Shown here: one piece after another, positions 1-25,700 of the stretch | How the letters are laid out: each line of letters opens with the position of its first letter | How positions within the stretch are numbered: the first letter of the stretch is position 1 | From: Alphaproteobacteria bacterium | Lineage (GTDB): Bacteria; Pseudomonadota; Alphaproteobacteria; Bin95 | NCBI GenBank assembly: GCA_964291285.2 | Contig: OZ219786.1 | Coordinates: forward strand, 288,001-352,000 | Length of the DNA stretch: 64,000 nt | Direction of reading: 5' to 3' | Translations under genes and position numbers: made by a program | The notes under the pieces: generated by a model | The model's input: the letters and a program-made list of their open reading frames with translations, nothing else | Database searches by the model: none | Told to the model about the DNA's origin: nothing

Positions 1-387
1 GATCGCCGGCTCCTGGAACACGGCGGCAGCGGAAGAGGCCGGGGCGGCGGCGGGAAAGACGGACCGCCGCCCCGGCGCGCCGGCGGACAACGGAACGGCC
101 GTGTTGTCCGAAGCCGCCGGCGTCCCGCGATCGGCGCCGCCCGCGCCCGGGGAAGCGGCGGACGGCCCGGGGCCGGGAAGGGAAGGCGGGGTTGCCGGGG
201 CCGGTGACGACGGCGAAGACGGCAACGGCGGAAGCGCGTCCCCCGTCCCCTCCGGCAACGCCGCCGCCGGTGACAGCAGCAACCCCCCGGACAGCAGGCC
301 CGCAAGCAGGGGCAGGACCCGCGGACGCGCCCGGACACCCGCCGGAGACTTGACGAAAACCCGCCCCGCGGGACAGGATGAGCCCAT
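1..387 (-). CDS. Putative secreted Pro/Ala/Ser-rich protein, runs off the window start (possibly pilus-associated)
   Basis: Manually translated open frame MGSSCPAGRVFVKSPAGVRARPRVLPLLAGLLSGGLLLSPAAALPEGTG...VFQEPAI with no stop down to position 1. GAAGGA lies 7 nt upstream of the ATG, and there is a signal-peptide-like basic/hydrophobic/AAA stretch. Not in the ORF track because it is truncated. Confidence 0.45.
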   Translation of the reverse strand, partial: MGSSCPAGRVFVKSPAGVRARPRVLPLLAGLLSGGLLLSPAAALPEGTGDALPPLPSSPSSPAPATPPSLPGPGPSAASPGAGGADRGTPAASDNTAVPLSAGAPGRRSVFPAAAPASSAAAVFQEPAI

Positions 388-814
388 GATGTCGTCCTTC
401 GACACCCTCGCCGCCGCCGAAGCGCTCCAGGACGCCGGCGCCAAGCCCGAACTCGCCAAGGCCATGGCCGCCCAGCTCAAGGCCGCGGCGAAAGCCGGCG
501 AACCCGTCACGAGACCCGAACTCGACGCCGCTCTCGGCGCCCTCAAGGCCGAACTGCTCGAACGAATCGCCGCGACCGACCAGCGGATCACATCCGTCGA
601 GAAAAACCTGATCGAGCGCATTGCGACGAGCGAAAAGGGGCTGATCGAGCGCATCGCGGCGAGCGAAAAGGGCCTGAATGACCGCATCGCCGAGACGGAA
701 CGCCGGCTGATGGACCGGACGGCCGCCCTCGTCTGGCGGCTGTTCGGCGCCATGGTCGCGCTCGCCGGCATCACCATCGCGGTGCTCGAATACCTGCGCA
801 CGCCGGCCGGATAG
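386..814 (+). CDS. DUF1640/CCDC90-like membrane-anchored coiled-coil protein
   Basis: Starts MMSSFDTL with AGGA upstream. FDTL head motif, VTRPEL neck-like motif, 11-residue coiled-coil repeats and a C-terminal TM helix (LVWRLFGAMVALAGITIAVL). The ORF-track N-extension from 101 is judged spurious. Confidence 0.75.
   Translation: MMSSFDTLAAAEALQDAGAKPELAKAMAAQLKAAAKAGEPVTRPELDAALGALKAELLERIAATDQRITSVEKNLIERIATSEKGLIERIAASEKGLNDRIAETERRLMDRTAALVWRLFGAMVALAGITIAVLEYLRTPAG
608..694 (+). repeat. 33-nt tandem repeat (hendecad coiled-coil repeat)
   Basis: ctgatcgagcgcattgcgacgagcgaaaagggg / ctgatcgagcgcatcgcggcgagcgaaaagggc / ctgaatgaccgcatcgccgag encode LIERIATSEKG / LIERIAASEKG / LNDRIAE. Confidence 0.85.
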
Positions 815-936
815 CCCCCGGCGGCCCCGGCAGCCGCAACCGGCCGGAAAATGCCGGCAGACTTGCGCGCTCCATGACCGGCGCTGACAGCCGCGAAGCG
901 AAGACGGCGGAAGGCGCGCAGCATCGCCCGGCGCCC

Positions 937-2184
937 TCAGTACCGGTCCCGTGTGAACCGTGTCCACACGGTCGGCTGCATATCGAGATCGGCGGCCAGT
1001 TCGCGCCAGCCGATGCTGCGCGGCCCCGCCGGATCGTCCCGGACCGTCATCTCCAGGCGGCCCCGCGTCCAGCGCCAGGTTCCGTCGAAATGAGGGCCTG
1101 ACACCAGGGTCCCCGCCTCGTCCACCACCGAGAACTTCCCCTCGGGATGGAACACGAAACGCCTGTCCGCATACGCCTCGCCCATGAACGCCAGCGAACG
1201 CGGATAAGGACGCGCGATGAACTCGTCCGTCAGCTGGAACGCCGGATGGCGGTGGCCCGTCGGCAGATACGGAAACGGATAGCCGACCGGATAGCGGAAC
1301 CGGACCCTCGGCCCGTCATGGATCTCGATCCACTCGCCCGCCTCGTCCGCCGTGCGCACGATGTCCCAGTAGCCGTCCGTCATGTTCCAGTGCCCGATCC
1401 GCCAGAGCTCCTCCCGGTCCCCGGCGCGCACATAGGTGAGGCCGATGCGCTTGTAGGTCATCAGCACATTGCCTTCCTGCGCCTCGAGGAAGGCCTCGAC
1501 CTCCGCCTTCGTCGTCGTCGGCCTGCCGCCCGAAGCGCCCAGGCCCGTGCGGCCGGGCGACGTCAACCGCCAACCCGGGAAGTGCCGGACCGGCGCGTCC
1601 GGGTCCTGGCGGCGCAGCTCGTCCATCTTCAGCGAGGTCTGCTTCTCGTTGACCCGGATATGCGCCGGGACCAGGTCCGGACAGGCGTCTGCCAGGGCGC
1701 GCGGCCAGCTGTCCTGGATATGGCCCGGATTGGTGAGGACAGCGCCGCCCTGCCCGTTGACTTCGGTCGCGAGCGTGCCGGTCTCCGGATCGTAGAAATG
1801 GGATGCATACAGCCGCTTCTGCGGGTCGATCTGCCACGCGACTTCGCCGCCGTTTCCCGCCATATGTGTTGACCAGCGGGTCGTGTCGTTGCCCAGCCAT
1901 TGGAACCTGCCGCCCGGGCGGCGGTGCGCGACGCACTCGTAGGCCGTCCCGTCGGCGCCGAAGACCACCCCCTGGACGACATTGCGGAACCGCCCGGTCC
2001 CCTCGACCACCTTCACCCTGTCCGCGAGCAGCCGGTTGTAGAAGTCGGCACTGTAGGGCGTATGGTTGATATAGACCTTGCTGTCGAGCTTGGCCGACTG
2101 CCCGTGCGCCGTGCAGGAGGCCAGCGCCGCGCCCGCAAGCGCCAGCGCCAGCAGTCTCCCTGCCGTGAGGTTCGACGGCTTCAT
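937..2184 (-). CDS. Lipoprotein of unknown function (415 aa)
   Basis: MKPSNLTAGRLLALALAGAALASC lipobox. ATG at 2184 overlaps the desaturase stop (ATGA). Aromatic, beta-rich mature part. Confidence 0.7.
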   Translation of the reverse strand: MKPSNLTAGRLLALALAGAALASCTAHGQSAKLDSKVYINHTPYSADFYNRLLADRVKVVEGTGRFRNVVQGVVFGADGTAYECVAHRRPGGRFQWLGNDTTRWSTHMAGNGGEVAWQIDPQKRLYASHFYDPETGTLATEVNGQGGAVLTNPGHIQDSWPRALADACPDLVPAHIRVNEKQTSLKMDELRRQDPDAPVRHFPGWRLTSPGRTGLGASGGRPTTTKAEVEAFLEAQEGNVLMTYKRIGLTYVRAGDREELWRIGHWNMTDGYWDIVRTADEAGEWIEIHDGPRVRFRYPVGYPFPYLPTGHRHPAFQLTDEFIARPYPRSLAFMGEAYADRRFVFHPEGKFSVVDEAGTLVSGPHFDGTWRWTRGRLEMTVRDDPAGPRSIGWRELAADLDMQPTVWTRFTRDRY

Positions 2185-3011
2185 GTCACTGTCTCCCTTC
2201 CGTCTCGCGATGGAGTGCGCCGGGCCCGGATGCGGGCCCCGCAAGAGGCCAGTCCGATCACGAGGCCCGCCATGTCGAGCGTCGGGTGGAACACCGCCCG
2301 GCCCGGCGCGGCGTGATGGTTGTTGTGCCAGCCCTCGCCCCAGGTGAGCAGTGCGACCGCCGGGTTGTTGCGGCTGTCGTCGCCCGTCCGGTGCGGCTGC
2401 GCCCCCCAGCGGTGGCAGGCCATCGTCACCAGCCCGCCCGCCCAGAGCGTCGCCGCCACCGGGACCGCCCAGCCGAAGACCGCCAGACGCCAGTCCAGCA
2501 CCGCCAGCAGCACAGGCCAGCCGAGCGCCAGCGGCAGGTAGTGCCGGTGCAGCCACAGGCCGAACCGGTCGCCGCGCAGCTCGCGCCGGAACGCCGCCCT
2601 GTCCGCCGGCGCGCCGTAGCTCCCGACCAGCAGCGCCCGCCAGCCGAGCCGGCCGGCCGGATGCGGGTCGCCCGCCCGGTCGGCATGGGCGTGATGGCGC
2701 CGGTGCGTCACCGCCCATGCGGGTCCGGTCCCGAAGCAGCCCATCACTCCCAGCAGGTGGAACATCACCACCGCCCGGCGCGGCGCCGCGAAACTCCGGT
2801 GCGCGAAGTAGCGGTGGAACCCGATCGACAGCCCGACGCAGCCGAAGAGGAAATAGCCGGACAGCGCGAGCGCCCACCAGGCGAGACCCGCTTCGGCGAA
2901 CGCCAGCGCCCACAGCGCGACCGCGCCGGTGACGATCTGGACCGCGCCGAAGAACATCATCGGCGCACCCGCCCTCCGGAACAGGTCCGTTCCCGCCGCC
3001 GGCGCGCTCAC
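2181..3011 (-). CDS. Membrane fatty-acid desaturase (delta9/OLE1-like)
   Basis: Three His boxes HRYFAH, HRRHH and HNNHH, the motifs DSRNN and GEGWHNNHH, and TM segments. GTG at 3011 overlaps the GNAT stop (GTGA); an alternative ATG lies near 2960. Confidence 0.88.
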   Translation of the reverse strand: MSAPAAGTDLFRRAGAPMMFFGAVQIVTGAVALWALAFAEAGLAWWALALSGYFLFGCVGLSIGFHRYFAHRSFAAPRRAVVMFHLLGVMGCFGTGPAWAVTHRRHHAHADRAGDPHPAGRLGWRALLVGSYGAPADRAAFRRELRGDRFGLWLHRHYLPLALGWPVLLAVLDWRLAVFGWAVPVAATLWAGGLVTMACHRWGAQPHRTGDDSRNNPAVALLTWGEGWHNNHHAAPGRAVFHPTLDMAGLVIGLASCGARIRARRTPSRDGRETVT

Positions 3012-3523
3012 AGCGCGAGCTCGTAGTTGCCGCCCGTCAGCCGGAAGCCGAGGCGCTTCAACAGCCTGTCGGTCCGCGCGATGTCCACGCCGGAGGCGAC
3101 ATTGACATGCAGGCGGACCGCGCCGCGTTCCCCGGCCCACCGCCGGCAGGCGTGCAGCAGCTTGATCGCCGCCAGCGACCCCCGATGCTCCGGCAGCACG
3201 TAGAAGGCGAGGATCGAGGCGCCGGGCGCGGACGAGTACCAGTGAGGCCCGACAGCCGCTGACAGCATGCCGACCGTGCGCTCGCCGCGCTCGGCCTGCA
3301 CCAGGCAATACCTGCCAGGCTTCGCGAGGCGCTCGACGACGCCCCGCCTGACAAGTTCCCCATCGAAGGGGAGCGCCTTGTCGCCCATCTCCTCATACGC
3401 GCGGCGGGCCAGGCTCACCCGCGCGGCGATATCCTCTTCGGACCGCGAGAACCGGACGGTCACGCTGCCGGGCCGGGCGTCTGCCGGGCGGGGCGCAGCG
3501 GCAACTGCCGGGGCCGCGCTCAT
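3008..3523 (-). CDS. GNAT family N-acyltransferase
   Basis: FYVLPEHRGS (motif A) and RLLKRLGF C-terminal motif. ATG at 3523 overlaps the upstream stop (ATGA). Confidence 0.85.
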   Translation of the reverse strand: MSAAPAVAAAPRPADARPGSVTVRFSRSEEDIAARVSLARRAYEEMGDKALPFDGELVRRGVVERLAKPGRYCLVQAERGERTVGMLSAAVGPHWYSSAPGASILAFYVLPEHRGSLAAIKLLHACRRWAGERGAVRLHVNVASGVDIARTDRLLKRLGFRLTGGNYELAL

Positions 3524-5367
3524 TCCCTGCGCTCCCCGACCCTGAGCGAGACGTCCCAAAACGCCCTCGGGCCATCCTTGCCGACATATTGGCCCTCGCC
3601 GAACACGGTGTTGCCGGCGACGCTTCGCACGACGCCGTCGCTCGTCAGCGCGATGGACCGGATGCCGGCCTCGTCGAGGCTGCGCAACTCGCCCGGATCG
3701 CTCTCGCCGTCCCGGTCGAGGTCCTGCCAGACCCGGAACAGGGCCCACTCCGCATCCTCGGGGTCCAACTGCCCGTCGCCGTCGGTGTCGAAATGGCGGA
3801 GGCCCTCGAGGTCCGTGCGCGCGCCCGGCACATAGGAGACGAAGCTCAACTCGTCATGCGCCGCGATCCGCCCGTCGCCGTCCTTGTCGTAGGCCAGGAA
3901 GCCGTCATCGGCGGCGGCCCAGGCCATGCGGGTGCGATAGCCATCGCCGTTGATGTCGTAGAACGCGGTCGAGTCCTCGAGCGCCACCAGCTCCACCCCG
4001 TCCCCGTCCAGGTCCAGCACGATCGGCTTGGCGCCCCCGCCACCACCATTGTGGCCGCCATTGTTGGCGCTGTCGCCCTTGCCGCTGGAGCCGCAGCAGC
4101 CCACGCTCGGATCCGTGTCGTCGTCGTCGTCTCCGGCCTCGACCCCGTCATTGTCACCATCATGTCCTCCCGGGCTCTCATATTCGGGGCCGGGCAGGAT
4201 GGGATCGGTCGGCGGCGGCTGGATGGGCGTCGGCGTCCTGGGCCCGACCGGAGGCGGATCGGTCGGCCGGGGAGGCGCGCCCGGATCGGGCGTTACCGGA
4301 TCGGGACGCCGCGGTGGGTCCTGCGGCGGAGGCGGAGGAGGCTGGCAGTTGTCCACGTTCCGCACCCACCGCCGGGCCCCGACCAGGCGCCATGTCCGCA
4401 CCACCTCCGCGCCCGGACGGACCTGGAAGTCCCGATACTGCGTGTCCTGCTCGTAATGCGAGGTGCAGCCGCCCGACCACCCCGAGGGGCAGGAGCAGGA
4501 GCCCGTGGTGCGCTGCACCGGCCCCGCATACAGCCGGATCACCGGGTCCGGGAGCGGGTCCGGGGCCGGCGCCTGCGCATACACATGCGGGCAGAGGCCG
4601 CCGGCATGGCGCCACGGGCCGCACTGCGCCCTTGCTCCGAGACCCGCCCGGCGGTCGCAGTCGCGCGGCCAGAGATGCGCCGCGTCCGGCGCCGTCGCCG
4701 CAAGGTCCCGGCCCCGCGCATCGCCCGCCCCGCGAATGTCCGTCGCCTGGATCGGAACACGCCGCGACTCGCGGAAGGTCTCCGTCGCCGAACCCGGACA
4801 GGCCACCGTCCGGAACTCCGTCTCCCAGCGGAACCCCGTCACCGTGCGCGCCGGATCGGCCACCGCCCCCACAAGCCCGACACGATCCTCCCCCAGCGAG
4901 GGAACCGACATGCAGGCCGGCAGCGACGCGTCGGCACGCCCGAGCGCGCCCGCCGCAATGCGCGTGTTCGCCAGGATCACATGCAGCCCCGCCCGGCCGC
5001 CCCGCACCGGCGCCACCTGAACCTCGCGATGGCCCCGGCCCACGCCCTTCAGCTCGTCGCTGGCCGCATGGACCGCCAGCACCCCGCCGCAATAGCGCGC
5101 CGTCAGGCCCCGCTCCGTCCAGGACCCGAGCCACCAGGCGCCGGAGGGCGGGTCCGAGGCGCCGTCCCATTCGCTCCGCCAGAGCCGGGCCGCGTCCGTC
5201 ACGCGGATGCGCTCCCCGACACTCGCGAAGGCGGTCCGGATCGCCGCCGCATGCGCCAGCGCCTCCTGGCGCCGCGTCCGGTCCGGATCGCCCGTCTGCG
5301 CCACAGCGCCGGGCGCGATCGCGGCGAGGGTCAACGCCAGCGCCGCTGCGGTTCCCGCCTGTCTCAT
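3520..5367 (-). CDS. Secreted PilV-like adhesin with Cys-containing repeats, Pro-rich linker and C-terminal Ca-binding FrpC-SPM-like domain (615 aa)
   Basis: Signal peptide MRQAGTAAALALTLAAIAPGAVAQ. Two CP-G...W...C modules and a Pro-rich linker. C-terminal PIVLDLDGDGVEL...DINGDG...DDGFLAYDKDGDG...FDTDGDG...FRVWQDLDRDGESDPGELRSL. ATGA overlap with the pilO-like gene. Confidence 0.65.
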   Translation of the reverse strand: MRQAGTAAALALTLAAIAPGAVAQTGDPDRTRRQEALAHAAAIRTAFASVGERIRVTDAARLWRSEWDGASDPPSGAWWLGSWTERGLTARYCGGVLAVHAASDELKGVGRGHREVQVAPVRGGRAGLHVILANTRIAAGALGRADASLPACMSVPSLGEDRVGLVGAVADPARTVTGFRWETEFRTVACPGSATETFRESRRVPIQATDIRGAGDARGRDLAATAPDAAHLWPRDCDRRAGLGARAQCGPWRHAGGLCPHVYAQAPAPDPLPDPVIRLYAGPVQRTTGSCSCPSGWSGGCTSHYEQDTQYRDFQVRPGAEVVRTWRLVGARRWVRNVDNCQPPPPPPQDPPRRPDPVTPDPGAPPRPTDPPPVGPRTPTPIQPPPTDPILPGPEYESPGGHDGDNDGVEAGDDDDDTDPSVGCCGSSGKGDSANNGGHNGGGGGAKPIVLDLDGDGVELVALEDSTAFYDINGDGYRTRMAWAAADDGFLAYDKDGDGRIAAHDELSFVSYVPGARTDLEGLRHFDTDGDGQLDPEDAEWALFRVWQDLDRDGESDPGELRSLDEAGIRSIALTSDGVVRSVAGNTVFGEGQYVGKDGPRAFWDVSLRVGERRE

Positions 5368-6656
5368 CCCGCACTCCCCGCCGCGGCGTCCGCGCCGCCG
5401 TCCACCGGCAGGCCCGTCAGCGCCGTGAACTCGCTCTGAAGCATCCGGAACGGGCGCGACCGCCGGCAGGCGAATACCCAGCCCCCCTCCCGGCTCCACG
5501 CCGCGGACACCACCTCCAGGCCCTCGACCGCCGTCAGCATCGCGACCGCCTCGCCCAGCGGGCGCACGGTCCGCAACTCCACCTCGACCTCCGCTCCCCA
5601 CTGCCCGTAGCCGATATCGAACCCCCGCAGCCCCAGCGCCCTGTCCAGGCGGCGGCGGAACGCGGCAGGCTCCGGCCAGGGCGCGGCCTCCGGGTCGTGG
5701 CGCGCCAGCACCGCCGGCAGCAGGCTGAACGCCGCCGCCGTTCCCGTGTTATCCAGAAGGGCGTTGCGCCAGTCTCCCAGCATGTCCTGCGCCAGAGGCA
5801 CATGCACGCGCGGGTCGAGGCCCTCGCGCAGGCCCCAGTGCACCTCCAGCACCGCCTGCCCGGACAGGCCGCCCGGCGACAGGCCGGACCGCGCCTGCAC
5901 GAAACGCGGATGGCACGCCGCCCCCTGCCGCTCCCACCCCGACATCGTGACCCGGTGCGCCTCCAGCGCCGCCCGGCAGTGCCGCAGGAACGCCCCGCTC
6001 CGCACCACCGCATCGACCATGGGCGGTTCCTCCGGCGGCGCCTCCTTCAGATGGACGAACACCAGTATGTCGTCCCGATGGTTCCAGGCCGGCCAGGCCC
6101 CGCCGCCGGCCAGCACCAGCAGCGCCGCCGCGATGCCCGCGCGCCAGGTCAGGCGCACCTTCGGCGCCTCGACCATGACCGGCAGGCCCGCCGCCGCGCC
6201 CGCAAGCGCCCCGCTCTCGACAACCGCCCCGGCCCCGAACAGCTCCGCAAGGCCCGGCGTCGCGACCACTGCCGCATCCTGGCCGCCGGCGCTGCCCAGC
6301 GCCCGGTGCGCCTGGTCAGCCGAGCGGTAGACGCTCTCCCCGCCCGGCAGGATGCGCCCGCCCGCGCTCCGCACGACCCCGACACGGTTGCCGCCGTCCT
6401 CCTCCACGAAGGCCGCCCAGGCGGCAGGCGCCCCCGCGCCGCCGGATGCCAGCACCGCCCGCAGCGCCCCGGCAAGCGGCGGCAGGCCGCCCGGCGCCTC
6501 CGCCGCCCCCAGAAACCCCGTCTGCCCGTCAAGCTCCACCATCCAGGCATGGCCGCGCTCGCGCGCCGCCCGCGCCGCACGGCCACGGGACAGCACGTCC
6601 CGCTCCCAGTCGAGACCGGCCGCAAACCGCCGCCCGCCCACCGCCAGCACGCTCAT
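5364..6656 (-). CDS. pilO: Type IVB pilus accessory protein PilO-like (PilO2)
   Basis: N-terminus MSVLAVGGRRFAAGLDW resembles PilO2 starts. Single mid-protein TM helix, 430 aa, coupled directly downstream of the secretin. Confidence 0.6.
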   Translation of the reverse strand: MSVLAVGGRRFAAGLDWERDVLSRGRAARAARERGHAWMVELDGQTGFLGAAEAPGGLPPLAGALRAVLASGGAGAPAAWAAFVEEDGGNRVGVVRSAGGRILPGGESVYRSADQAHRALGSAGGQDAAVVATPGLAELFGAGAVVESGALAGAAAGLPVMVEAPKVRLTWRAGIAAALLVLAGGGAWPAWNHRDDILVFVHLKEAPPEEPPMVDAVVRSGAFLRHCRAALEAHRVTMSGWERQGAACHPRFVQARSGLSPGGLSGQAVLEVHWGLREGLDPRVHVPLAQDMLGDWRNALLDNTGTAAAFSLLPAVLARHDPEAAPWPEPAAFRRRLDRALGLRGFDIGYGQWGAEVEVELRTVRPLGEAVAMLTAVEGLEVVSAAWSREGGWVFACRRSRPFRMLQSEFTALTGLPVDGGADAAAGSAG

Positions 6657-7898
6657 CCACCCGCCTCCCGGTCCACGCCCGCCGGTCCTGCACCGCCGCC
6701 CGCAGCCGCGACCGGAGCCGGGCCGAACCCCGCCCGCTCCGATATCCCCAGAGGCGCCCCGATCTCCGCCGTCACCAGAAGCGCCGTCTCCACACGCGCC
6801 AGGTCCGCTTTCCCACTGCCCTCCGGAAACGGCACGTCCTCGTGGACCGTCCCCGACCGGGTGCCCGTGGACGAACGGTCCCGGAAGCCCGTCAGCAGCA
6901 GCGTCTCGCCCCGCCCGATGCGCTGCGTCGCCACGATCGCGCGCCGCCCGCCCGCAGGAAGCTGGATCTCGTTGCCCGCAGAGCTGAACACCTTGAACGC
7001 CGGGCGGTCCTGGATCGTCGCCGTGATCCGCGCCAGAACCTCGTCATGCCCCACGACCCGCGCCACGAAACTCAGACCGAACCCCGACGACACCGTCCCC
7101 GGCGTCAGCTTGTACGACCGCACCCCGTCCTTGACCTCCGTGGCGACCTCCTTCAGGTAGGCCTGGTCGAACAGGTCGTAGAACTGCGCCGGGCGCCCGT
7201 TCAGCGTCGGCACGTCCACCGACAGCAGGCGCGAGGTCGTGCCGACCTTGCGGAGCGCGCTCACCGTCGCATCCAGCGTCTTCGTTCCGGCGGTCACCGG
7301 CTTTACTAACGAAATCGCGCCGCCCTGGAACCCGACCTGCAGGTTCGACCCGAACGCCTCCGGCAGCAGCCCCGTCAGACCCACCTCGTAGTCCGAGCCC
7401 CGGTCGAACCGCACCGAGTAGAGATGCACGCTCAGCGTCACCGGGCGCAGCACATGCCGGTTCACATGCTCCAGCCAGGACCGCACACGGTCCACCGCCC
7501 GCGGCAGGCCGGTCACCGTCACCGTCGAGGCCGCCGCCGAGATCGACACCCGGCCTTCGGAACCCGCGGCAGCCCAGGCCTGCGCCCCGATCTCCGACCA
7601 GGGCTCGTAGCTCATCTCCGAGGAGATCGACTGCTCCGAACTCCCCGAGGTCGCCTCGCCGCCGCTGCCCGAGGTTGTCGTCGTCACCGACCAGGTCTGG
7701 CGCCCGACCAGCGCATGCACCCCGAACACCCGCGTCTCGGAGCGCACCACCTCGACCAGCTCCGCCTCGCCGTCATACTGCCACCGGTAGCCCGCGCACT
7801 CCGTCCACGCGTCCAGCAGCCGGTCCAACGGACCTGCCCACACGCCGGCCTCGCCGGCCAGTTCGTCCTCCCAGGAGGCCAGCCAGGCCTCGCACGCG

Positions 7899-7982
7899 CC
7901 GCCCGTCGGCGCCGGCTCGCCATCCGTCGGCGCATCCGCCCCGTCCATCGGTGCATCCACGCCGTCCATCGGCGCCGGCTCG
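7899..7982 (-). repeat. Four 21-nt tandem repeats inside the secretin gene
   Basis: Encode EPAPMDG/VDAPMDG/ADAPTDG/EPAPTGG. Confidence 0.8.
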
Positions 7983-8114
7983 TTGTCCCTGTGGGCGGCT
8001 CCCTGCCACACGGCCCCGGTCAGCTGCACCCCGATGCCGGTCGCATCGGATATGCGGCGCGCCAGGACCTCGTCCCCCGGACCGTCGCCGAGCGTCACCA
8101 CGATCCCGGTCTCC

Positions 8115-9045
8115 GAGCCTGACCCAAAAAGAGTTGAGCGGTTTCAAGGGATTGTGATTCAGTTCGGTTATGCATCTGAACGGAGCCACGAATGCCCTGG
8201 ACCGAAACCGCTCGCCGGGAGTATCGGCGGGACTGCCCACGATATGCAAGCGATCTGACCGACGCTGAGTGGTCTCTGATCGAGCCCTTCATGCCGTTGC
8301 CCTGCCGTATCGGTCGCCCGCGCCAGACCGATCTGCGCGAGGTCGTAAATGCGGTGCTGTATATGGCCACGACCGGTTGTCAGTGGCGCCAGCTGCCGAA
8401 GGACTTTCCGCCGGTCTCGACGGTGCAGCGCTATTTCTACGAGTGGCGCGACAACAGGCTGTGGCAGACGATCCGGTTCCACCTGGCCGTGCAGGCGCGC
8501 GAACGCGAGGGGCGCGAGGCCCAGCCGAGCGCGGGCGTGATCGACAGCCAGACGGTGAAAACCACGGAGGCAGGCGGGGTTAGCGGCTATGACGCCGGCA
8601 AGAAGGTCAAAGGGCGCAAGCGCCACGCTGTCGTCGACACCATCGGCATGCTCTTCGGCCTCGTCGTACATGCCGCCGACGTTCAGGACCGCGACGGCGC
8701 CCCGGCCGTGCTGAAATCCATCCGCCACGCCTGCCCCTGGCTGCGTCATCTGTTCGCCGATGGCGGATATGCCGGGCCGAAACTGCGCGGCGCCCTCGAC
8801 AGGATCGGCAAGTGGACGCTCGAAATCGTCAAACGCTCCGACACCGCCAACGGCTTCGAAGTCCTCCCCGGACGATGGGTCGTCGAACGCACCTTCGCAT
8901 GGCTCGGGCGCTGCCGCAGGCTGGCAAAAGACTGGGAAAAATCCATCGCCTCAAGCGAAGCATGGATCAACATCGCCCATATCCGGCTCACAACACGCCG
9001 ACTCGCAAGGCCTTGAAAAACTTCAGCGAGTTTCGAGTCAGGCTC
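8115..9045 (+). mobile_element. IS5 family (IS1031-like group) insertion sequence, 931 bp
   Basis: Terminal IRs gagcctgacccaaaa (8115-8129) and tttcgagtcaggctc (9031-9045) match at 13/15. 3-bp target duplication TCC at 8112-8114 and 9046-9048. Confidence 0.92.
8192..9016 (+). CDS. IS5 family transposase
   Basis: YASDLTDAEW, TGCQWRQLPKDFPP, IDSQTVKT, GYDAGKKVKGRKRH, ADGGY, RWVVERTFAWL. Confidence 0.95.
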   Translation: MPWTETARREYRRDCPRYASDLTDAEWSLIEPFMPLPCRIGRPRQTDLREVVNAVLYMATTGCQWRQLPKDFPPVSTVQRYFYEWRDNRLWQTIRFHLAVQAREREGREAQPSAGVIDSQTVKTTEAGGVSGYDAGKKVKGRKRHAVVDTIGMLFGLVVHAADVQDRDGAPAVLKSIRHACPWLRHLFADGGYAGPKLRGALDRIGKWTLEIVKRSDTANGFEVLPGRWVVERTFAWLGRCRRLAKDWEKSIASSEAWINIAHIRLTTRRLARP

Positions 9046-12548: not shown

Positions 12549-12838
12549 CGTCCGCGTCCCGCTCCGTCCGTCCGGCGCGCGACGCAAAGGCCTTCGCGCA
12601 CCGGCGTCATGCAGGCCTGGCGGTTGGGTTCGCCGTCGATCTCGACGAGGCATTCGAAACAGACACCCATGGCGCACCAGGGCCCGCGCGGCCCGCCATC
12701 GACCGGCGCACGGCGGAATTCAGCGACGCCCGACGCGAGCATGGCGGCCGCAACGCTGTCACCGGGCGCCGCTGCAACCGGTTCCCCGTCAACCTCTATC
12801 GTTATCGTCGCCTCTCGCTCAGGCAGCCGCCGGAACAT
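12545..12838 (-). CDS. 2Fe-2S ferredoxin-like subunit (HcnA-like)
   Basis: GPWCAMGVCFECLVEIDG...QAC. Confidence 0.88.
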   Translation of the reverse strand: MFRRLPEREATITIEVDGEPVAAAPGDSVAAAMLASGVAEFRRAPVDGGPRGPWCAMGVCFECLVEIDGEPNRQACMTPVREGLCVARRTDGAGRGR

Positions 12839-13931
12839 CGAACCTCCGCGCGCTGAAGGCTTCGAACCCGTCCGGCGCCTTGCCTTCGGCAATCCAGTCC
12901 GGCAGGCGGGCGGTGTGAACGGCGGCTAACGTGACGCCGCTGTGCATGGTGGCTACGAAGGCTCCGGGATGGCTTTCCGACTCGTCGTAGATCGGGCAGC
13001 GGTCCGGCGGGATGACCCTGAGCGCCGCCCAGCTCCGCATGAGCCTCAGCCGTTCGAGCGCCGGAAGCGCGCGGATGGCGCGCCGGGCGAGGCCGCGCGC
13101 GGCTTCCAGCGTCGTGCCGGTGTCGAAGCCAACGCTTTCCTGCGTCGCGCCGATCATGACCGTCCCTTCCGCCGTCTGGCGGAGATTGCCCATCGGCATC
13201 GGCATGAACCGTTCCACCCGCTCGGTCACCAGCACCTGACCGCGTTCCGGCACCGTCGGCACATTCAGGCCGACCTGCGCCGCCAGCGGCGGAATGCCGT
13301 TGCCTGCCGCCAGCAGCAGTTTCGGGGCCTCGAATGCGCCGGCGTCCGTCTCCACCCGGAAGCCGCGCCCGATATTGCGCACCCGTGCGCCGGGCCGGTA
13401 GCGCCCGCCTCTCGCCCTGAAGCCGGCGTGAAGGGCGCGCAGCAGGTAGAGCGGCCCGCAATGGCCGTCCTTTTCCGAGAAGGACGCGCCCACGACCTCC
13501 TGCCCGAAACGGACGCCCGGAGCTATCCGCTCCAGTTCGGCGCGTTCGACCATCCGGGCGTGGTAGCCGCCGCCCTGCGCCGCCATCGCCTCGTTGAGCC
13601 GCATCTGCGCTTCCCATTCCTCGTCGCCGAGGCACAGAATCGCGCCGCCCGGCCGCTCATGGTGGATGTCGACGCCCGTCAGGTCCCCAAGCTCCCCGGC
13701 GAATCCGGCGTAGCGGTCCGCCGATTCCTGCGACCATTCCTGGTAGCGCTGCAGCCCGAACCCCTTGGTCTGTACCCAGACGAGCCCGAAATTGCCTCGC
13801 GCCGCCCGGAAAGCGTCGTCGCCCTCGTCGAGCATGAGCACGTCGAGTCCCTTGCCGGCCAGCCCGTAGGCCGCCGCCGCGCCGACCATGCCGCCGCCGA
13901 TGACGATGATGTCCGCCGTCCCCTCAAGCAT
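12819..13931 (-). CDS. FAD-dependent oxidoreductase, DAO family (opine oxidase B/HcnC-like)
   Basis: IIVIGGGMVG, RAARGNFGLVWVQ, HSGVTLA. Confidence 0.85.
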   Translation of the reverse strand: MLEGTADIIVIGGGMVGAAAAYGLAGKGLDVLMLDEGDDAFRAARGNFGLVWVQTKGFGLQRYQEWSQESADRYAGFAGELGDLTGVDIHHERPGGAILCLGDEEWEAQMRLNEAMAAQGGGYHARMVERAELERIAPGVRFGQEVVGASFSEKDGHCGPLYLLRALHAGFRARGGRYRPGARVRNIGRGFRVETDAGAFEAPKLLLAAGNGIPPLAAQVGLNVPTVPERGQVLVTERVERFMPMPMGNLRQTAEGTVMIGATQESVGFDTGTTLEAARGLARRAIRALPALERLRLMRSWAALRVIPPDRCPIYDESESHPGAFVATMHSGVTLAAVHTARLPDWIAEGKAPDGFEAFSARRFDVPAAA

Positions 13932-14076
13932 GGCGGCAATCGTGCTGTAGCCGCCCGGGCTGTGCAAGCCGCGCCTCCGCGGAGTGCGTCCACGGGGCCA
14001 GACAGTTTCTTGACAGGCCGTGTCGTGGCATGTTCCCGGCCCGCCGTTCCCTCGACGAAAGTCCGGACGATCCGCC

Positions 14077-15843
14077 ATGAATGTCGCCACACCCCCGTTT
14101 ATTGCCCGGAACACCCTCCCGAACGCGACTGCCGCCGGCACGCCGCTGGCGCCCGATTGCCACGGGATGAACTTCTTCGACATCGACCGCAGCCTGCAGG
14201 ACCTGCTGCCGCTCTACCTGCCGGACGACTTGCGCGAACACATGCTTCCGCATTTCCGTCGGCTCGGGGAAATCGCCGGCGGGCGCCTAGACGAGCTGGC
14301 GCGGCTGGCTGACCGGCACGGGCCCGTGCTGCATTTACGCGACGCCTTCGGTCGCGACGAGGATTGGATCGAGTTCCATCCCGCCTACCGGGAGATGGAG
14401 CAGATCGGGTTCGGCGATTTCGGTATCCACGCTATGTCCCGGCGCTCCGGCGTACTCGGATGGAACGGAACGCCGATCACGGCGAAATACATCCTGCAAT
14501 ATCTGTTCGTGCAGTCGGAATTCGCGCTGATGTGCCCGATCTCGGCCACGGACACCTCGGCGTTCCTCATCGGGAAATACGGCGACGAGGCGGTTCGTCG
14601 GCGTTTCATGCCGGGAATGACCAGCCAGGACATGAGCGAAATCTGCATGGGCGCGCAGTTCATGACGGAGAAGACGGGCGGCTCCGATGTCGGCGGCATC
14701 GAACTGGCAGCCCGGCTGGAGGATGGTCCCGAAGGAACCGAATGGCGGCTCTACGGCGACAAATGGTTCTGTTCCTGCGCCGACGCCGATGTTGCCCTGC
14801 TGCTGGCAAGGCCGGAAGGCGCGGTCGCAGGCACGGCCGGCCTCGGCCTGTTCGCCCTGCCGAAATACCGCGACGACGGCAGCCGCAACAGTTATCGGAT
14901 CGTGCGCCTAAAGGACAAGATGGGCACCCGGTCCATGGCGTCGGGTGAAATCGTGTTCGACGGGGCCGTCGCCTATCCGCTCGGCAAAGTGGGGCCGGGC
15001 CGGAACAACGGCCTCAAGCAAATGCTCGACCAGGTGAATCTGAGCCGCCTCTCGCACGGCGTGCGGGCTGCGGCGATGATGCGGCGCTGCCTGAACGAGG
15101 CCCTGGTCGCGGCGCGCGGGCGCGTGGCATTCGGCGGCATCGTCGCCGACAAGCCGCTGATGCGCCGGCAATTGCTCAAGCTGATGGTGCCGACCGAGCA
15201 GGCCCTCTCGATGGCGCTGTTCACCGCGGACAGGCTGGAACGCTCGGAAGCCGGCGACGAGCGGGCGGCGGCGCTGGTGCGGCTGCTTACGCCATTGCTG
15301 AAATTCCGCACCGGTCGGGACAATATCGCGGTCGCAACCGGCGCCATGGAGGCGCGAGGCGGCAACGGCTATATCGAAACCTTCGTCAATGCCCGGCTCG
15401 TGCGCGACGCCCACCTCGGCGTGCTCTGGGAAGGCACCTCCAATATCAACGCCCTGGACATTGTCGGCCGCGCCGTCGGCAAGACCGGCGCGCATGAAGT
15501 CCTCCGCGAGACACTGACGGACCTGCTGGACGAGGCGGACGGCCTGCCCGGCCAGTTGAAGGGCGCGCTCGGCCATGCCGCAGGCCGTGCCATTGCGCTT
15601 GCCGAGGAGGTCGCGGAGGCTGGGGACGAGCCGCGCATGCGCCAAGCGTCCGATGCGCTCTACCACGCGGCAAGCGCCGTCGTCATGGCGCATGAAGGCG
15701 GCCGGATCGTGGCGGCCGGCGGCGGCCGGAAACGCCTGCTGCTCGCGCAGATGGTGCTGGACCACCGGCTGAGCCCGCAGGACCCGCTCGCGCCGCGCGG
15801 CGACGACCCGGAGATTGCCGGGGAGCTGCTGGACGCCGCGTAG
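14077..15843 (+). CDS. Acyl-CoA dehydrogenase, AidB-like
   Basis: CPISATD, FMTEKTGGSDV, GDKWFCS, RLKDKMGTRSMASGEI, GGNGY, WEGTSNI. Confidence 0.88.
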   Translation: MNVATPPFIARNTLPNATAAGTPLAPDCHGMNFFDIDRSLQDLLPLYLPDDLREHMLPHFRRLGEIAGGRLDELARLADRHGPVLHLRDAFGRDEDWIEFHPAYREMEQIGFGDFGIHAMSRRSGVLGWNGTPITAKYILQYLFVQSEFALMCPISATDTSAFLIGKYGDEAVRRRFMPGMTSQDMSEICMGAQFMTEKTGGSDVGGIELAARLEDGPEGTEWRLYGDKWFCSCADADVALLLARPEGAVAGTAGLGLFALPKYRDDGSRNSYRIVRLKDKMGTRSMASGEIVFDGAVAYPLGKVGPGRNNGLKQMLDQVNLSRLSHGVRAAAMMRRCLNEALVAARGRVAFGGIVADKPLMRRQLLKLMVPTEQALSMALFTADRLERSEAGDERAAALVRLLTPLLKFRTGRDNIAVATGAMEARGGNGYIETFVNARLVRDAHLGVLWEGTSNINALDIVGRAVGKTGAHEVLRETLTDLLDEADGLPGQLKGALGHAAGRAIALAEEVAEAGDEPRMRQASDALYHAASAVVMAHEGGRIVAAGGGRKRLLLAQMVLDHRLSPQDPLAPRGDDPEIAGELLDAA

Positions 15844-15930
15844 TCCTGCGTTTCGCATGGACGCGGGCGGGACCGTCCGTGACACCGGGTATCCTTGCCG
15901 CGATAGATGCCCGCCCTTAGGGTCCGGGCC

Positions 15931-17226
15931 ATGATCGAACGCTACACCCGCGCCGAGATGGCGGCCGTCTGGTCGGCGGAGACCAGATTCCGTATCTGGT
16001 TCGAGATCGAGGCCCATGCGCTGGACGCCATGGCCGCGCTCGGCATGGCGCCCGCATCGGCGGCGCGCGCGGTGTGGGAGCGGGGTGCATTCGAGATCGA
16101 CCGTATCGACGAGATCGAGGCCGAGACGAAGCACGACGTCATCGCCTTTCTCACCAATCTCGCCGAGCATGTCGGCCCGGAGGCGCGGTTCGTCCACCAG
16201 GGCATGACCTCCTCCGACGTGCTCGACACCTGCCTGGCGGTGCAGCTCACCCGCGCCAGCGACATTCTTCTGGCAGACCTCGACAGGCTGCTCTCCGCCC
16301 TGAAGGCAAAGGCTTGCGAGCACAAATTCACCCTCTGTGTCGGGCGCAGCCACGCCATCCATGCCGAGCCCACCACCTTCGGCGTCAAGCTCGCCGGGCA
16401 CCATGCCGAGTTCGCCCGCAACCGCGCCCGGCTGGAAGCCGCACGGGCGGAGATTGCCACCTGCGCCATTTCCGGTCCGGTCGGCACATTCGCCAGCGTC
16501 GATCCGCGCGTCGAGGCGCATGTGGCGGAAAAGCTGGGCCTTGCGCCCGAGACGCATTCGACGCAAGTGATCCCCCGCGACCGCCATGCCATGTTCTTCG
16601 CCGTGCTGGGCGTGATCGCGGGCGGGGTCGAACGGCTCGCGGTCGAGATCCGGCATTTGCAGCGCACCGAATTGCGGGAGGCGGAGGAGTTCTTCTCCGC
16701 CGGGCAGAAGGGCTCCTCCGCCATGCCGCACAAGCGCAATCCGGTGCTGACGGAAAACCTGACCGGGCTGGCGCGCATGGTCCGCTCGGCCGTCATCCCC
16801 GCGCTCGAGAATGTCGCGCTCTGGCACGAGCGGGACATCTCCCATTCCTCCGTCGAGCGGATGATCGGCCCGGATGCGACCACGACCCTCGATTTCGCGC
16901 TCCACCGGCTCGCGGGCGTGGTGGAGAAGCTGGTCGTCTATCCCGACGCCATGCGGCGGAATTTCGGCAGCCTGGGCGGCCTCGTCTTTTCGCAGCATGT
17001 GCTTCTGGAACTCACGCAGGCGGGCATGAGCCGCGAGGACGCCTACGCGAAGGTGCAGGCGGCAGCGATGGCCGTCTGGGAAAAGGGCGGGTCCTTCCGC
17101 GCACAGCTTGAGCGCGACCCGGACATAGCCGCAGCCGTGCCGCCGGCGCGGCTCGACGGGATATTCGACGCGGACCGCCAGCTGGTCCATGTCGATACGA
17201 TCTTCGAGCGCGTTTTCGGAAGCTGA
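15931..17226 (+). CDS. purB: Adenylosuccinate lyase
   Basis: MIERY, HQGMTSSD, GRSHAIHAEPTTFG, GSSAMPHKRNP. Confidence 0.95.
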   Translation: MIERYTRAEMAAVWSAETRFRIWFEIEAHALDAMAALGMAPASAARAVWERGAFEIDRIDEIEAETKHDVIAFLTNLAEHVGPEARFVHQGMTSSDVLDTCLAVQLTRASDILLADLDRLLSALKAKACEHKFTLCVGRSHAIHAEPTTFGVKLAGHHAEFARNRARLEAARAEIATCAISGPVGTFASVDPRVEAHVAEKLGLAPETHSTQVIPRDRHAMFFAVLGVIAGGVERLAVEIRHLQRTELREAEEFFSAGQKGSSAMPHKRNPVLTENLTGLARMVRSAVIPALENVALWHERDISHSSVERMIGPDATTTLDFALHRLAGVVEKLVVYPDAMRRNFGSLGGLVFSQHVLLELTQAGMSREDAYAKVQAAAMAVWEKGGSFRAQLERDPDIAAAVPPARLDGIFDADRQLVHVDTIFERVFGS

Positions 17227-17261
17227 ACCCACTTCGCCGCAGCCCATCTGGAGAATTCGGA

Positions 17262-18755
17262 ATGTCGGACCGCACAGTCGATGTCGTCATAGTCGGCGCG
17301 GGCAATGCCGCCATGTGCGCCGCGCTCGCCGCGCGCGAGCAGGGCGCGGACGTGCTCGTGCTGGAGCGCGCGAACGAGGAGGAGCGCGGCGGCAACTCGG
17401 CCTTCACCGCAGGCAATATCCGCACGGTCTTCAACGGCGTGGACGACATCAGGGCACTGGTGCCGGACCTCACCGACGACGAGGTCGCGATCACCGATTT
17501 CGGCGTCTACAGCGAGGCCGACTTCTACGACGACATGGGCCGGATCACCGAATACCGGACCGACCCGGACATGTGCGAATTGCTGGTTACGCGCTCGCTC
17601 GACACGATGAAGTGGATGCGGGACAAGGGCGTGCGCTTCCTGCCGATCTACGGCAAGCAGGCCTTCAAGATCGACGGGCGCTTCAAGTTCTGGGGCGGCC
17701 TCGTGCTGTCGGCCTGGGGCGGCGGGCCGGGGCTGGTGGACGCCCTGCACGAGTCCGGCGCGAGAGACGGCGTGGAGGTGCTCTACGGCGCGCGCGCCAC
17801 CGGATTGTTGCACGGCGACGACGGCGTGAAGGGCGTGCGCGTACGCCAGGACCGCCGGAGCTTCGAGGTGCATGCCCGCGCCGTGGTCCTCGCCTCGGGC
17901 GGCTTCGAGGCGAACCCGGAGATGCGCACCCGCTATCTCGGCCCCGGCTGGGACGTGGCCAAGGTGCGCGGCACCCGCTTCAACACCGGCGACGGCATCC
18001 GCATGGCGCTCGACGCGGGCGCGCGCGCCTACGGCAACTGGTCCGGCTGCCACGCCGTCGGCTGGGATTTCAACGCGCCCGAATTCGGCGACCTCGCCGT
18101 CGGCGACAACTTCCAGAAGCACAGCTATCCGTGGGGCATCATGGTGAACGCGGAGGGCCGGCGTTTCGTCGATGAAGGCGCGGACTTCCGCAACTACACC
18201 TACGCGAAATACGGGCGCGTGATCCTGGGCCAGCCGGGCCAGATGGCCTGGCAGGTGTTCGACAACAAGATCATCCCGAACCTGCGCGACGAATACCGCA
18301 TCCGCGAGGTCACCAAGGTCCGGGCCGACACGATAGAAGAGCTTGCGGCGAAGCTGGAAGGCGTGAATGCCGAGGCGTTCCTCAAGGAAATCCGGGCCTA
18401 CAATGCGGCCGTGCGCACGGACATTCCCTACAACCCGAACATAAAGGACGGGCGCCGGACGGAGGGCCTCGCGGTGGACAAGACGAACTGGGCTAACACC
18501 ATCGACGAGCCGCCCTTCGAGGGCTACCAGACCACCTGCGGCATCACCTTCACCTTCGGCGGCCTGCGCGTGAACGAGGATGCCCAGGTGATGGACACGG
18601 ACGATATCGAGATTCCGGGCCTCTACGCCGCGGGCGAGCTGGTCGGCGGCCTGTTCTGGTTCAACTATCCGGGCGGCACCGGGCTGATGGCGGGCGCGGT
18701 CTTCGGCAAGATCGCCGGCGAAGCGGCCGGGCGGGCGGCCGTCGGCAACGAATAG
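17262..18755 (+). CDS. tcuA: FAD-dependent tricarballylate dehydrogenase TcuA-like
   Basis: VIVGAGNAA, GGNSAFTAG, VRGTRFNTGDG, RFVDEGADFRNYTYAKYG, ITFTFGGL, NYPGGTGL. Confidence 0.8.
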   Translation: MSDRTVDVVIVGAGNAAMCAALAAREQGADVLVLERANEEERGGNSAFTAGNIRTVFNGVDDIRALVPDLTDDEVAITDFGVYSEADFYDDMGRITEYRTDPDMCELLVTRSLDTMKWMRDKGVRFLPIYGKQAFKIDGRFKFWGGLVLSAWGGGPGLVDALHESGARDGVEVLYGARATGLLHGDDGVKGVRVRQDRRSFEVHARAVVLASGGFEANPEMRTRYLGPGWDVAKVRGTRFNTGDGIRMALDAGARAYGNWSGCHAVGWDFNAPEFGDLAVGDNFQKHSYPWGIMVNAEGRRFVDEGADFRNYTYAKYGRVILGQPGQMAWQVFDNKIIPNLRDEYRIREVTKVRADTIEELAAKLEGVNAEAFLKEIRAYNAAVRTDIPYNPNIKDGRRTEGLAVDKTNWANTIDEPPFEGYQTTCGITFTFGGLRVNEDAQVMDTDDIEIPGLYAAGELVGGLFWFNYPGGTGLMAGAVFGKIAGEAAGRAAVGNE

Positions 18756-18798
18756 GCGCCCGCCCGACTACCGCTACCCTTTACGGAGGCTGACACCG

Positions 18799-19371: not shown

Positions 19372-19390
19372 ATTCGGGAGGCGGACAGGA

Positions 19391-20224: not shown

Positions 20225-20240
20225 GCCCGCCGGCGGGACT

Positions 20241-25215: not shown

Positions 25216-25218
25216 GGC

Positions 25219-25575
25219 CTAACTGCCCCGATAGGTCGAATAGCCGAAGGGCGAGAGCAGCAGCGGCACATGGTAGTTGGCCCCGGCTTCCGAAATGCCG
25301 AACCGCACCGGCACCGTGTCGAGAAACGGCCTGTCTGCGCCCGCGCCCGCAACGCGATGATAATCGCCGGCCTCGAATTCAATCTCGTAGACGCCGGGCG
25401 CGAATGCGTCGCCGTCGAGCAACGGCCCGTCCGTGCGCCCGTCGGCATTGGTGACGGTAGACCCCAGCAGGCGTCGGCTGCCCGCCTCCAGCCTGTAGAG
25501 CCGAAGCGCCAGCCCCGCAGCGGGGCGGCCGCGCGCCGTGTCCAGCACATGGGTGGTCAGCCGGCCGTCGGGCAT
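25219..25575 (-). CDS. uraH: 5-hydroxyisourate hydrolase
   Basis: [14 protein letters not shown]-terminal YHVPLL...YRGS. Confidence 0.95.
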
Positions 25576-25700
25576 GGGCGCTCCCTCGGACTCGTTCGGA
25601 GCCTTCCTGTCGGGAGGCGGTATCCTTGCACGCTAGCAATCCGCATTTTTACAATCAACACAGTCGATTGTCGAAAATGGTTGGCAGGACGGAGAAGGCA

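Follow-up and report, generated by a model that had tools for sequence, protein, structure and literature searches.

The window analysed here, a stretch of 64,000 nucleotides from a bacterium of the Alphaproteobacteria (positions 288,001 to 352,000 of OZ219786.1, contig 2 of a five-contig genome of 6.1 Mb; assembly GCA_964291285.2), contains in a pilus operon the gene of a 615-aa protein that ends in a domain homologous to the Neisseria FrpC self-processing module (SPM), with a Lys-Pro pair in the place of the Asp-Pro bond that is cut in FrpC. The next gene of the operon encodes an acetyltransferase of the GNAT family. We consider it probable that this SPM-like tail serves as a non-cutting module whose folding is triggered by Ca2+, carried by an exported accessory protein of a thin pilus and co-inherited with the GNAT.

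Homology of the C-terminal domain to the FrpC module

The last 170 aa of the protein were compared with all PDB chains using phmmer. The strongest match was 6sjw_A (E 2.1e-25, query residues 3–157 on residues 1–161 of the chain), followed by 6sjx_A (E 1.2e-24), both of which are entries of the FrpC SPM. Calmodulins came next with E 2e-7, matched in their EF-hand loops alone. An AlphaFold2 model of residues 430–615, built on a 111-row alignment, has a mean predicted local distance difference test score (pLDDT) of 92.2 and a predicted template modelling score (pTM) of 0.87. Foldseek places this model on 6sjx (E 4.2e-15, TM-score 0.75, 36% identity) and on 6sjw (E 2.1e-14), and the third match is far weaker (E 0.05). 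The homology of the C-terminal domain to FrpC residues 415–591 is thus confirmed by both sequence and fold. An earlier note on this DNA, made from the sequence alone, had placed an FrpC-type module at 3520–4029; this placement proved exact, and the alignment and structure prediction proposed there as a check returned structural similarity to the SPM rather than the lack of it.

In the alignment, Pro448 corresponds to FrpC Pro415 and Lys447 stands in place of Asp414, just as the junction had been read in the earlier note (minus-strand codons AAG at 4029–4027 for Lys447 and CCG at 4026–4024 for Pro448). The residue preceding Lys447 is Ala here and Gly in most relatives. The FrpC SPM is described as having four EF-hand-like sites, formed by D419–G424 with D456, D462–E474, D499–D511 and D521–E532, and a T-shaped pair of tryptophans, W451/W519 (PMC7078468). 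Counterparts of W451, W519, D456 and the loops 419–424, 462–474, 499–511 and 521–532 are all present in the phmmer alignment, and six loops of the form D-x-[DN]-x-[DN]-G occur in the protein, at residues 403, 452, 471, 494, 527 and 549. Homology and fold, the four predicted EF-hand-like sites and the Trp pair are therefore features that the domain shares with the SPM class.

The features related to cleavage are different. According to PMC7078468, the D414 carboxylate of FrpC attacks the strained D414–P415 bond, which is shielded by a "narrow port" of W451, L475, G477, G491 and D579–L582, and a transient fifth Ca2+ is bound by the D414 carbonyl, D478 and D579. Cleavage is abolished by the D414A mutation and almost abolished when Gly, Asp or Pro stands right before the Asp-Pro pair (PMC7846742). 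In the domain studied here the position of D579 is occupied by Asp605, D414 is replaced by Lys447, F476-G477 by Ser-Phe and G491 by Asp, and D478-N479 fall in a two-residue gap, which means that the Asp-Pro scissile bond, the port residues G477 and G491 and the fifth-site residue D478 are all missing. The Gly/Asp-rich nonapeptides (PF00353) characteristic of type I secreted RTX (repeats-in-toxin) proteins are also absent, as had been noted before: the 615-aa protein has no match to GG.G.D and none to PF00353. Judged by its sequence, the domain is a member of the SPM family without the features that define a self-processing SPM: it has no Asp nucleophile, no port glycines and no RTX context.

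The protein starts with a putative Sec-type leader, as previously proposed, which consists of one Arg, an Ala/Leu-rich core and A-V-A|Q. It was recognised by eye and in an alignment of the members of the protein family (alignment A1), where A-Q-[ST]-G-D-P-D-R is conserved after the hydrophobic core. Alignment A1 also shows that the length of the linker differs between members and that the 10 Cys of the N-terminal domain are mostly invariant across homologues, which fits an exported protein. The N-terminal domain (residues 25–345) was modelled on 44 sequences with a pLDDT of 78. The top VIA-align match of the model, a weak one, is 3eoi_B, a "putative PilM" of E. coli B7A (Z 6.3, root-mean-square deviation 4.7, 121 of 123 residues), followed by type IV pilins and pseudopilins with weak Z values of 3–4.5; by the tool's own remark, Z values under 8 may reflect merely a common arrangement. 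Foldseek found no match for this model at E ≤ 0.001. The first ~145 residues of the modelled domain are possibly PilM- or pilin-like, a weak lead that is congruent with the genomic context.

Junction residues and branches of the domain family

A word-indexed search with the whole protein returned 133 relatives. The 121 proteins examined among them contain 88 junction motifs, with Lys before Pro in 73 of the 88, nearly always behind a Gly run. In alignment A1 Pro448 is invariant and the Lys nearly so: three of 30 family members have the Lys one residue further from Pro (GGK-G-P), and one has Tyr. The Lys is no isolated case, GGGK-P being the state that a tight clade has conserved. RTX repeats (PF00353) and N-terminal parts of unrelated sequence are seen in many proteins of the Lys-Pro set. 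Three such RTX-type proteins (P0074, P0081 and P0083) have leaderless N-termini with Gly-zipper-like hydrophobic stretches followed by acidic low-complexity repeats. P0074 lies on a contig of the same length (11,894) as the contig of P0289, a GNAT of the subfamily described below, which raised the possibility of an SPM-GNAT pair outside the pilus context. No full-length relative was found in 401 genomes of the class; the one partial match, in genome G013, is truncated, and that genome lacks the GNAT.

The family of SPM-like domains at large is much wider. With the 170-aa domain as query, HMMER run exhaustively on 1.84 billion cluster representatives found 20,207 matches at E ≤ 1e-3, of which 11,100 remained with a threshold of 1e-10 and 892 with one of 1e-30. 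In the best 150 matches, the residue before Pro is Ala 55 times, Pro 40, Ser 39, Lys 28, Leu 25, Thr 13 and Asp 9 times, besides other residues (Pro-Pro starts were counted twice), and many of these 150 proteins are 1,000–7,000 aa long with 2–4 copies of the domain. The junction residue also varied in 79 loci from species-representative genomes and in 79 metagenome loci, the latter with Ser in 31, Asp in 20, Ala in 12, Thr in 7, Cys in 7 and Lys in 4. Among the PLSDB plasmids, the domain occurs in 169 records, with annotations such as hypothetical protein, adhesin or calcium-binding protein; none of the 169 covers the N-terminal domain, and no full-length homologue is present in the 72,556 PLSDB plasmids. 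The precomputed family PF26745.1 is assigned to a 99%-identical cluster representative (P0002) and to 87 other matches listed; PF26745 is not mentioned in the literature searched.

SPM-like domains with non-Asp junctions are thus very common, often in tandem in giant proteins. According to PMC7078468 and PMC3034196, the SPM occurs exclusively in a subset of RTX proteins, and the homologues explored in PMC12538545 are all close Asp-Pro relatives. The statement in the earlier note that the SPM normally sits in RTX proteins consequently agrees with the literature (PMC7078468) but not with the databases. Of the possible refutation named there, that X-Pro variants turn out to be common and already characterised, the first half holds in the databases, whereas our literature search found no paper characterising non-Asp SPM-like domains.

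We aligned 385 domains and compared the alignment columns by junction residue, and we built a FastTree phylogeny of 111 domains from the Pro onwards, excluding the junction residue itself. The midpoint split separates a half of 50 rows from a half of 61 rows with a modest Shimodaira–Hasegawa-like support of 82. The junction residues in the 50-row half are Asp (31), Ser (13), Cys (4), Thr (1) and Val (1), and 31 of the 32 Asp-Pro domains fall in this half. The 61-row half contains Ala, Lys, Ser, Gly, Gln, Thr, Leu, Tyr, Glu, Trp, Phe, Val, Ile and Arg at the junction, and a single Asp. The port residues differ sharply between the two halves, with Phe-Gly at FrpC positions 476–477 (48/50 and 44/50, respectively) and Gly at 491 (45/50) in the former compared to Ser/Val-Phe at 476–477 (Phe in 52/61) and Asp at 491 (57/61) in the latter, and this pattern is also seen on the 385 domains. 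The SPM-like domain of the 615-aa protein belongs to the 61-row half, in a 13-row clade with support 100 that comprises 11 Lys-Pro and 2 Lys-Gly-Pro sequences. Within a very large family of Ca2+-binding domains, the Asp-Pro cutter seems to form a single branch; other junctions and altered ports are found in most members.

A further observation concerns the surroundings of the Asp-Pro domains in the tree. Cys-Pro domains (L062, L121, L155, L163) and Ser-Pro domains (for example L063, L127, L140) cluster with them, and the neighbouring Ser-, Cys- and Thr-Pro domains retain Phe-Gly at 476–477 and Gly at 491, within the modest support of the tree. Asp, Ser, Cys and Thr are all nucleophiles, and the non-Asp domains of this group might perform other kinds of Ca2+-triggered self-processing.

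Pairing with the acetyltransferase and readings of the tail

The GNAT gene reported in the earlier note next to the SPM gene is confirmed by its PF00583 match; it starts at 3523, its ATG overlaps the SPM stop codon, and an ATGA overlap of the same kind joins the SPM gene to the upstream 430-aa gene. Loci related to this one were gathered with alignment A1, as a single-protein query yielded no relatives, and 15 of them were compared by tblastn with the operon proteins: 14 from six genomes of the same genus and the source genome itself, and one from a metagenome contig. The conserved order in the 15 loci is secretin, the gene in pilO position, the protein with the N-terminal domain, lipoprotein, 495-aa gene, pilQ, pilR and pilS. 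An SPM tail is present in 10 of the 15, and in all 10 the GNAT follows directly, overlapping or nearly abutting (it is truncated in L185). The remaining five (L180, L182, L183, L186 and L187) have the protein without SPM tail, and none of them has the GNAT. When the three near-identical copies of the source genome and locus L001 are included, the GNAT lies downstream in 14 of 14 SPM-bearing loci compared with 0 of 5 SPM-less ones. Genome G011 contains three copies with the SPM and an equal number of GNAT genes, and genomes G015 and G012, with SPM-less copies alone, have no GNAT at E ≤ 1e-10. In 6 of these 14 loci with an SPM, the gene behind the GNAT is one of the desaturase family.

The GNAT itself belongs to a small subfamily, with 49 clusters among 5.8 billion sequences, all at least 47% identical and without a tail of weaker relatives, and its motif A is atypical (R-G-S-L-A). 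At least 13 of these 49 lie on contigs that agree in length with a contig bearing a member of the pilus-protein family. A PDB sequence search with the GNAT gave no match at E ≤ 0.01, and a look-up in the protein atlas returned generic GNAT clusters alone. Across 10 loci, identity to the copy in the window is 71–87% for the SPM domain, 47–70% for the N-terminal domain and 58–63% for the GNAT. We regard this small subfamily as dedicated to the SPM tail, with which it is co-inherited. One apparent SPM-GNAT fusion in the precomputed Pfam data (P0071) was rejected, since its sequence shows two neighbouring genes read through by a frameshift.

Behind a comparable linker rich in Gly, Ser and Asp, the SPM-less alleles end in CFI-box-CTERM, in Cys-rich repeats, or with nothing further. 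Three of the six SPM-less alleles scanned (P0043, P0056 and P0065) match CFI-box-CTERM (NF041770) with 42.7–49.8 bits against a cut-off of 40; P0067 and P0082 carry long Cys-rich repeats, and others end in G-G-S-P-P. A Pfam scan of the SPM-less C-terminal extensions found no family, and no function of CFI-box-CTERM is described in the literature searched. The C-terminus of the pilus protein behaves, on these sequences, as a swappable cassette.

The Lys in place of Asp414, the altered port residues, the position in the tree and the shift of the Lys or its replacement by Tyr, taken together, argue for a module that folds without cutting. In particular, a Lys that is displaced by one residue in three family members and is Tyr in another does not fit a catalytic Lys acting in place on its own bond, and the residue before Pro in the 61-row half is no conserved nucleophile, which supports the same reading. 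A non-cleaving Ca2+-folding module was among the alternatives offered in the earlier note, and it gains weight from the D414A precedent (PMC7846742), the replaced port glycines and the placement in the tree; its other alternative, a variant chemistry, gained no support (see below). We infer that the domain binds Ca2+, that it does not cleave, and that the protein acts in the pilus. The host protein would be an exported accessory protein of an R64/IncI-type thin pilus on a ~41 kb Dot/Icm-type conjugative element, with a signal peptide, a Cys-rich domain, a Pro/Gly-rich tether of ~100 residues and the SPM-like domain at its C-terminus. In the low-Ca2+ cytosol this domain would be disordered, hence fit for Sec export, and outside the cytoplasm, loaded with Ca2+, it would become a rigid folded knob that terminates the tether and could serve for anchoring or as a Ca2+-dependent contact of the mating pilus. 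The cytoplasmic, translationally coupled GNAT may act on the C-terminal extension prior to export.

Several points weigh against this reading. A purely structural role leaves unexplained both the near-invariant Gly-run-Lys-Pro junction (Lys in 73/88) and the dedicated enzyme that travels with the domain. The presence of CFI-box-CTERM, with its invariant first Cys, at the same site hints at a position used by modules for processing or sorting. The match to the PilM fold is weak (Z 6.3), and the split of the tree into two halves rests on a support of 82, on FastTree alone and on a midpoint root. The genomes compared are kin and not independent, and the SPM domains of the pilus-protein family form one clade, so the association with the GNAT may go back to one acquisition that was then long retained, rather than to repeated independent gains. 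Finally, we found no published experimental test of any non-Asp SPM-like domain.

The strict pairing and the translational coupling suggest that the GNAT acts on the SPM tail, although we hold any action on the SPM-bearing protein only tentatively, as somewhat less probable than its opposite. The candidate site would be Lys447, one of just five Lys in the 615-aa protein and located in the flexible Gly run, as the earlier note had speculated; that this residue is the target seems to us doubtful. In such a modification system, which is compatible with a non-cleaving module, the GNAT would acetylate or acylate Lys447 in the cytosol before the module folds, a desaturase-family protein, if encoded, would tailor the acyl chain, and the modified, Ca2+-folded tail would anchor or target the pilus protein. 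HlyC-type Lys acylation of RTX toxins follows an analogous logic. The 14/14 versus 0/5 adjacency, the small dedicated subfamily with its ATGA coupling, the desaturase-family gene behind the GNAT in 6 of 14 loci and a tolerated one-residue shift of the Lys, as for an acceptor site, all agree with this proposal, and we nevertheless judge it unlikely. The GGGK-P junction is equally conserved in RTX-type and other relatives, and within the DNA inspected no such GNAT was found near the domain in L003, L099, L100 and L159; in L052, the only GNAT is 27% identical and lies at a distance of 4 kb. The family member with Tyr in place of Lys retains an intact GNAT (on a contig of the same length), motif A of the enzyme is atypical, the supposed fusion protein proved spurious, and the SPM-bearing protein is a Sec substrate while the GNAT is leaderless, which means that the modification must precede export. 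A further form of the idea, in which the Gly-run-Lys-Pro tail and the GNAT constitute an undescribed two-gene modification cassette for conjugative-pilus proteins and the tail, once acylated, serves for anchoring or contact, is in our opinion likewise improbable; in a bolder form, the Lys-Pro bond could undergo a Lys-based variant of clip-and-link gated by the GNAT.

A variant of self-processing, in which Ca2+ folding activates the X-Pro bond and the Lys or a partner nucleophile attacks it, with release of the module (leaving a C-terminal Lys lactam) or a cross-link as the outcome, would account for the invariant Pro448 and near-invariant Lys, for the retained scaffold with four Ca2+ loops and Asp605 as the D579 equivalent, and for the modules of other alleles that start with an invariant Cys at the same position. 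Nonetheless, we consider it highly improbable. Other residues stand in place of the two port glycines, D478 is missing, the Lys can move by one residue or be Tyr, and the closure of a seven-membered ring is chemically unfavourable in general. Moreover, Gly or Ala precedes the Lys, and Gly before Asp-Pro nearly abolishes FrpC cleavage (PMC7846742), and the source genome contains no Asp-Pro SPM from which an anhydride could be passed to the Lys. A decayed remnant, that is, a formerly self-cleaving SPM that lost its Asp and is now functionless with the GNAT as an unrelated passenger, is suggested by the missing Asp and by a cassette (SPM and GNAT, with or without desaturase) that looks like a single acquisition (one clade, support 100), but is very unlikely because no other part of the protein is as well conserved as the SPM domain (71–87% compared to 47–70% in the N-terminal domain, identities that indicate purifying selection), all Ca2+ loops are intact, the GNAT is intact down to 47% identity in 49 clusters, and the replacements are common to the whole non-Asp half and would represent an old, stable state rather than recent decay.

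The SPM is in use as a protein-engineering tool, for example in NeissLock and in self-excising tags. A stable, Ca2+-gated relative that does not cut would, if our preferred reading of a non-cleaving module is correct, provide a natural control scaffold, and Ser-Pro and Cys-Pro domains that have port glycines and lie near the Asp-Pro cutters may represent new self-processing chemistries. The known range of SPM-like modules would be widened to Sec-exported proteins of conjugative pili. The pairing with the GNAT and the two-branch structure of the family are new, while non-Asp junctions are common though unstudied, and the pairing offers a concrete, testable hypothesis on a new modification step in the biology of the mating pilus.

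The pilus operon and comparison with known systems

The features of the operon within the window are collected in Table 1. The link to a pilus made in the earlier note is borne out by a PilN-family secretin upstream of the SPM gene and by a PilQ-like ATPase, a PilR-like platform protein and pilins downstream. The full order is secretin, 430-aa gene, SPM gene, GNAT, desaturase (optional), lipoprotein, 495-aa gene and then, by Pfam matches beyond the window start, T2SSE ATPase (E 4e-41), T2SSF (a weak match, E 2.7e-4) and two Bundlin-like pilins (E 1.2e-4 for one of them), followed by TcpQ-like, DotD, a second T2SSE-type (DotB-like) ATPase, DotI/IcmL and a TraG/TrwB-type coupling protein. The features of an R64-type thin-pilus cluster found here are the PilN secretin, scoring below its cut-off, the PilQ-type ATPase, the PilR-type platform and a type IVb pilin. 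On the basis of the PilN-family secretin and the Pfam matches beyond the window start, the locus is, by predicted gene content, an R64/IncI-like thin-pilus (type IVb) operon joined to Dot/Icm-like transfer genes.

Table 1. Coordinates of the SPM gene, its parts and the neighbouring genes in the window
Feature	Position	Strand	Basis and remarks
Gene of the 615-aa pilus-linked protein	3520..5367	-	Stop codon 3520-3522; ATGA overlap of its ATG with the upstream stop codon
Putative Sec signal peptide, residues 1-23, A-V-A before Q24	5299..5367	-	Read from the sequence and alignment A1
N-terminal domain, about residues 25-341, 10 Cys	4345..5295	-	Model pLDDT 78.3
Low-complexity Pro/Gly/Asp-rich linker, residues 342-446, Gly run at end	4030..4344	-	Composition P29 G19 D15 of 106 residues
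Lys447-Pro448 junction	4024..4029	-	Position of FrpC Asp414-Pro415
SPM-like putative Ca2+-binding domain, residues 448-615, extreme C-terminus	3523..4026	-	6sjw E 2e-25; model pLDDT 92.2; Foldseek 6sjx
GNAT acetyltransferase, 171 aa, no signal peptide	3008..3523	-	PF00583 E 4e-9, 37.2 bits against cut-off 20.7; ATG overlaps SPM stop (ATGA)
Fatty-acid-desaturase-family membrane protein, optional, start codon uncertain	2181..2948	-	PF00487 E 1e-14
Putative lipoprotein, 407 aa, conserved	937..2160	-	Leader ending in Cys; 15/15 loci (partial in L184, L186, L187)
5' part of the conserved ~495-aa operon gene, leaving the window towards pilQ	1..924	-	Locus comparison
430-aa protein, pilO position	5364..6656	-	Member of neither a Pfam nor an NCBIfam family
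PilN-family type IVB pilus secretin, first gene of the repeat	6653..8101	-	TIGR02520 E 7.7e-42, 143.5 bits, cut-off 287.65
IS4/IS5-type transposase abutting the left end of the element copy	8192..9016	+	DDE_Tnp_1 E 1.4e-37, DUF4096 E 5.7e-29

The source genome carries four copies of the SPM gene, namely the copy in the window and copies of 99%, 94% and about 55% identity; no SPM-like domain other than these four, and no Asp-Pro SPM, was found in it. The first three copies are located within a repeat of ~41 kb with 95–98% nucleotide identity that starts at the secretin gene and is found at ~255,000–296,100 of contig 2 (window positions 1–8101 are its first ~8 kb), on contig 5, and at ~487,000–533,200 of contig 2. 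The fourth belongs to a divergent pil locus on contig 3. The transposase at 8192–9016 may part the operon from its native promoter region, and in the two further copies of the repeat the sequence upstream of the secretin start is different.

Some other observations were made in and around the window. Two tandem pilin genes, of 177 and 178 aa with identical first 40 residues, lie at 13586–14741 (-) of L096, or 283,586–284,741 of contig 2, and one of them matches the Bundlin model with the E value given above. An open reading frame on the plus strand at 101–814 overlaps the minus-strand frame at 1–924, which is the start of the conserved 495-aa gene; the former has a coiled-coil-like repeat with I-E-R-I-A-x-S-E-K-G-L units, a hydrophobic C-terminus and a weak family match alone. 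Genes for purine and urate catabolism occupy ~12,800–29,800 in the chromosomal neighbourhood, including a xanthine-dehydrogenase-type molybdopterin subunit, a member of the urate oxidase N-terminal family, a xanthine/uracil permease, and an OHCU decarboxylase fused to a polysaccharide-deacetylase domain.

Among known systems, the FrpC SPM shares with the present domain homology over the whole module, the Pro-x-x-L-D-L-D-G-D-G start, the EF-hand-like loops and the Trp pair. It differs in the nucleophile (Asp, here Lys), in G477 and G491 (here Phe and Asp) and in D478 (here deleted), and it is internal to a type-I-secreted RTX protein (PMC7078468, PMC3034196), whereas the present domain forms the extreme C-terminus of a Sec-type protein free of RTX repeats and is accompanied by a GNAT. 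The non-Asp SPM-like domains of giant repeat proteins and adhesins (PF26745) have in common with it the half of the tree, the Ser/Val-Phe and Asp replacements in the port and a variable residue before Pro. Those domains are usually internal, in 2–4 tandem copies in proteins of 1,000–7,000 aa, often with RTX repeats, while here a single terminal domain is found in a pilus-operon protein, with a conserved Gly-run-Lys junction and a linked GNAT. CFI-box-CTERM (NF041770) likewise occupies the extreme C-terminus behind a Gly-rich linker in the same protein family, but it is unrelated in sequence, has an invariant Cys at its start and is not followed by a GNAT. The R64/IncI thin pilus has in common with the present locus the PilN secretin, T2SSE, T2SSF, Bundlin-like pilins, DotD, DotI/IcmL, a TcpQ-like protein and the coupling protein, here joined in one unit of ~41 kb; it differs in that three conserved genes, for the 615-aa protein, the 407-aa lipoprotein and the 495-aa protein, lie here between the pilO position and pilQ, where R64 presumably has pilP alone.

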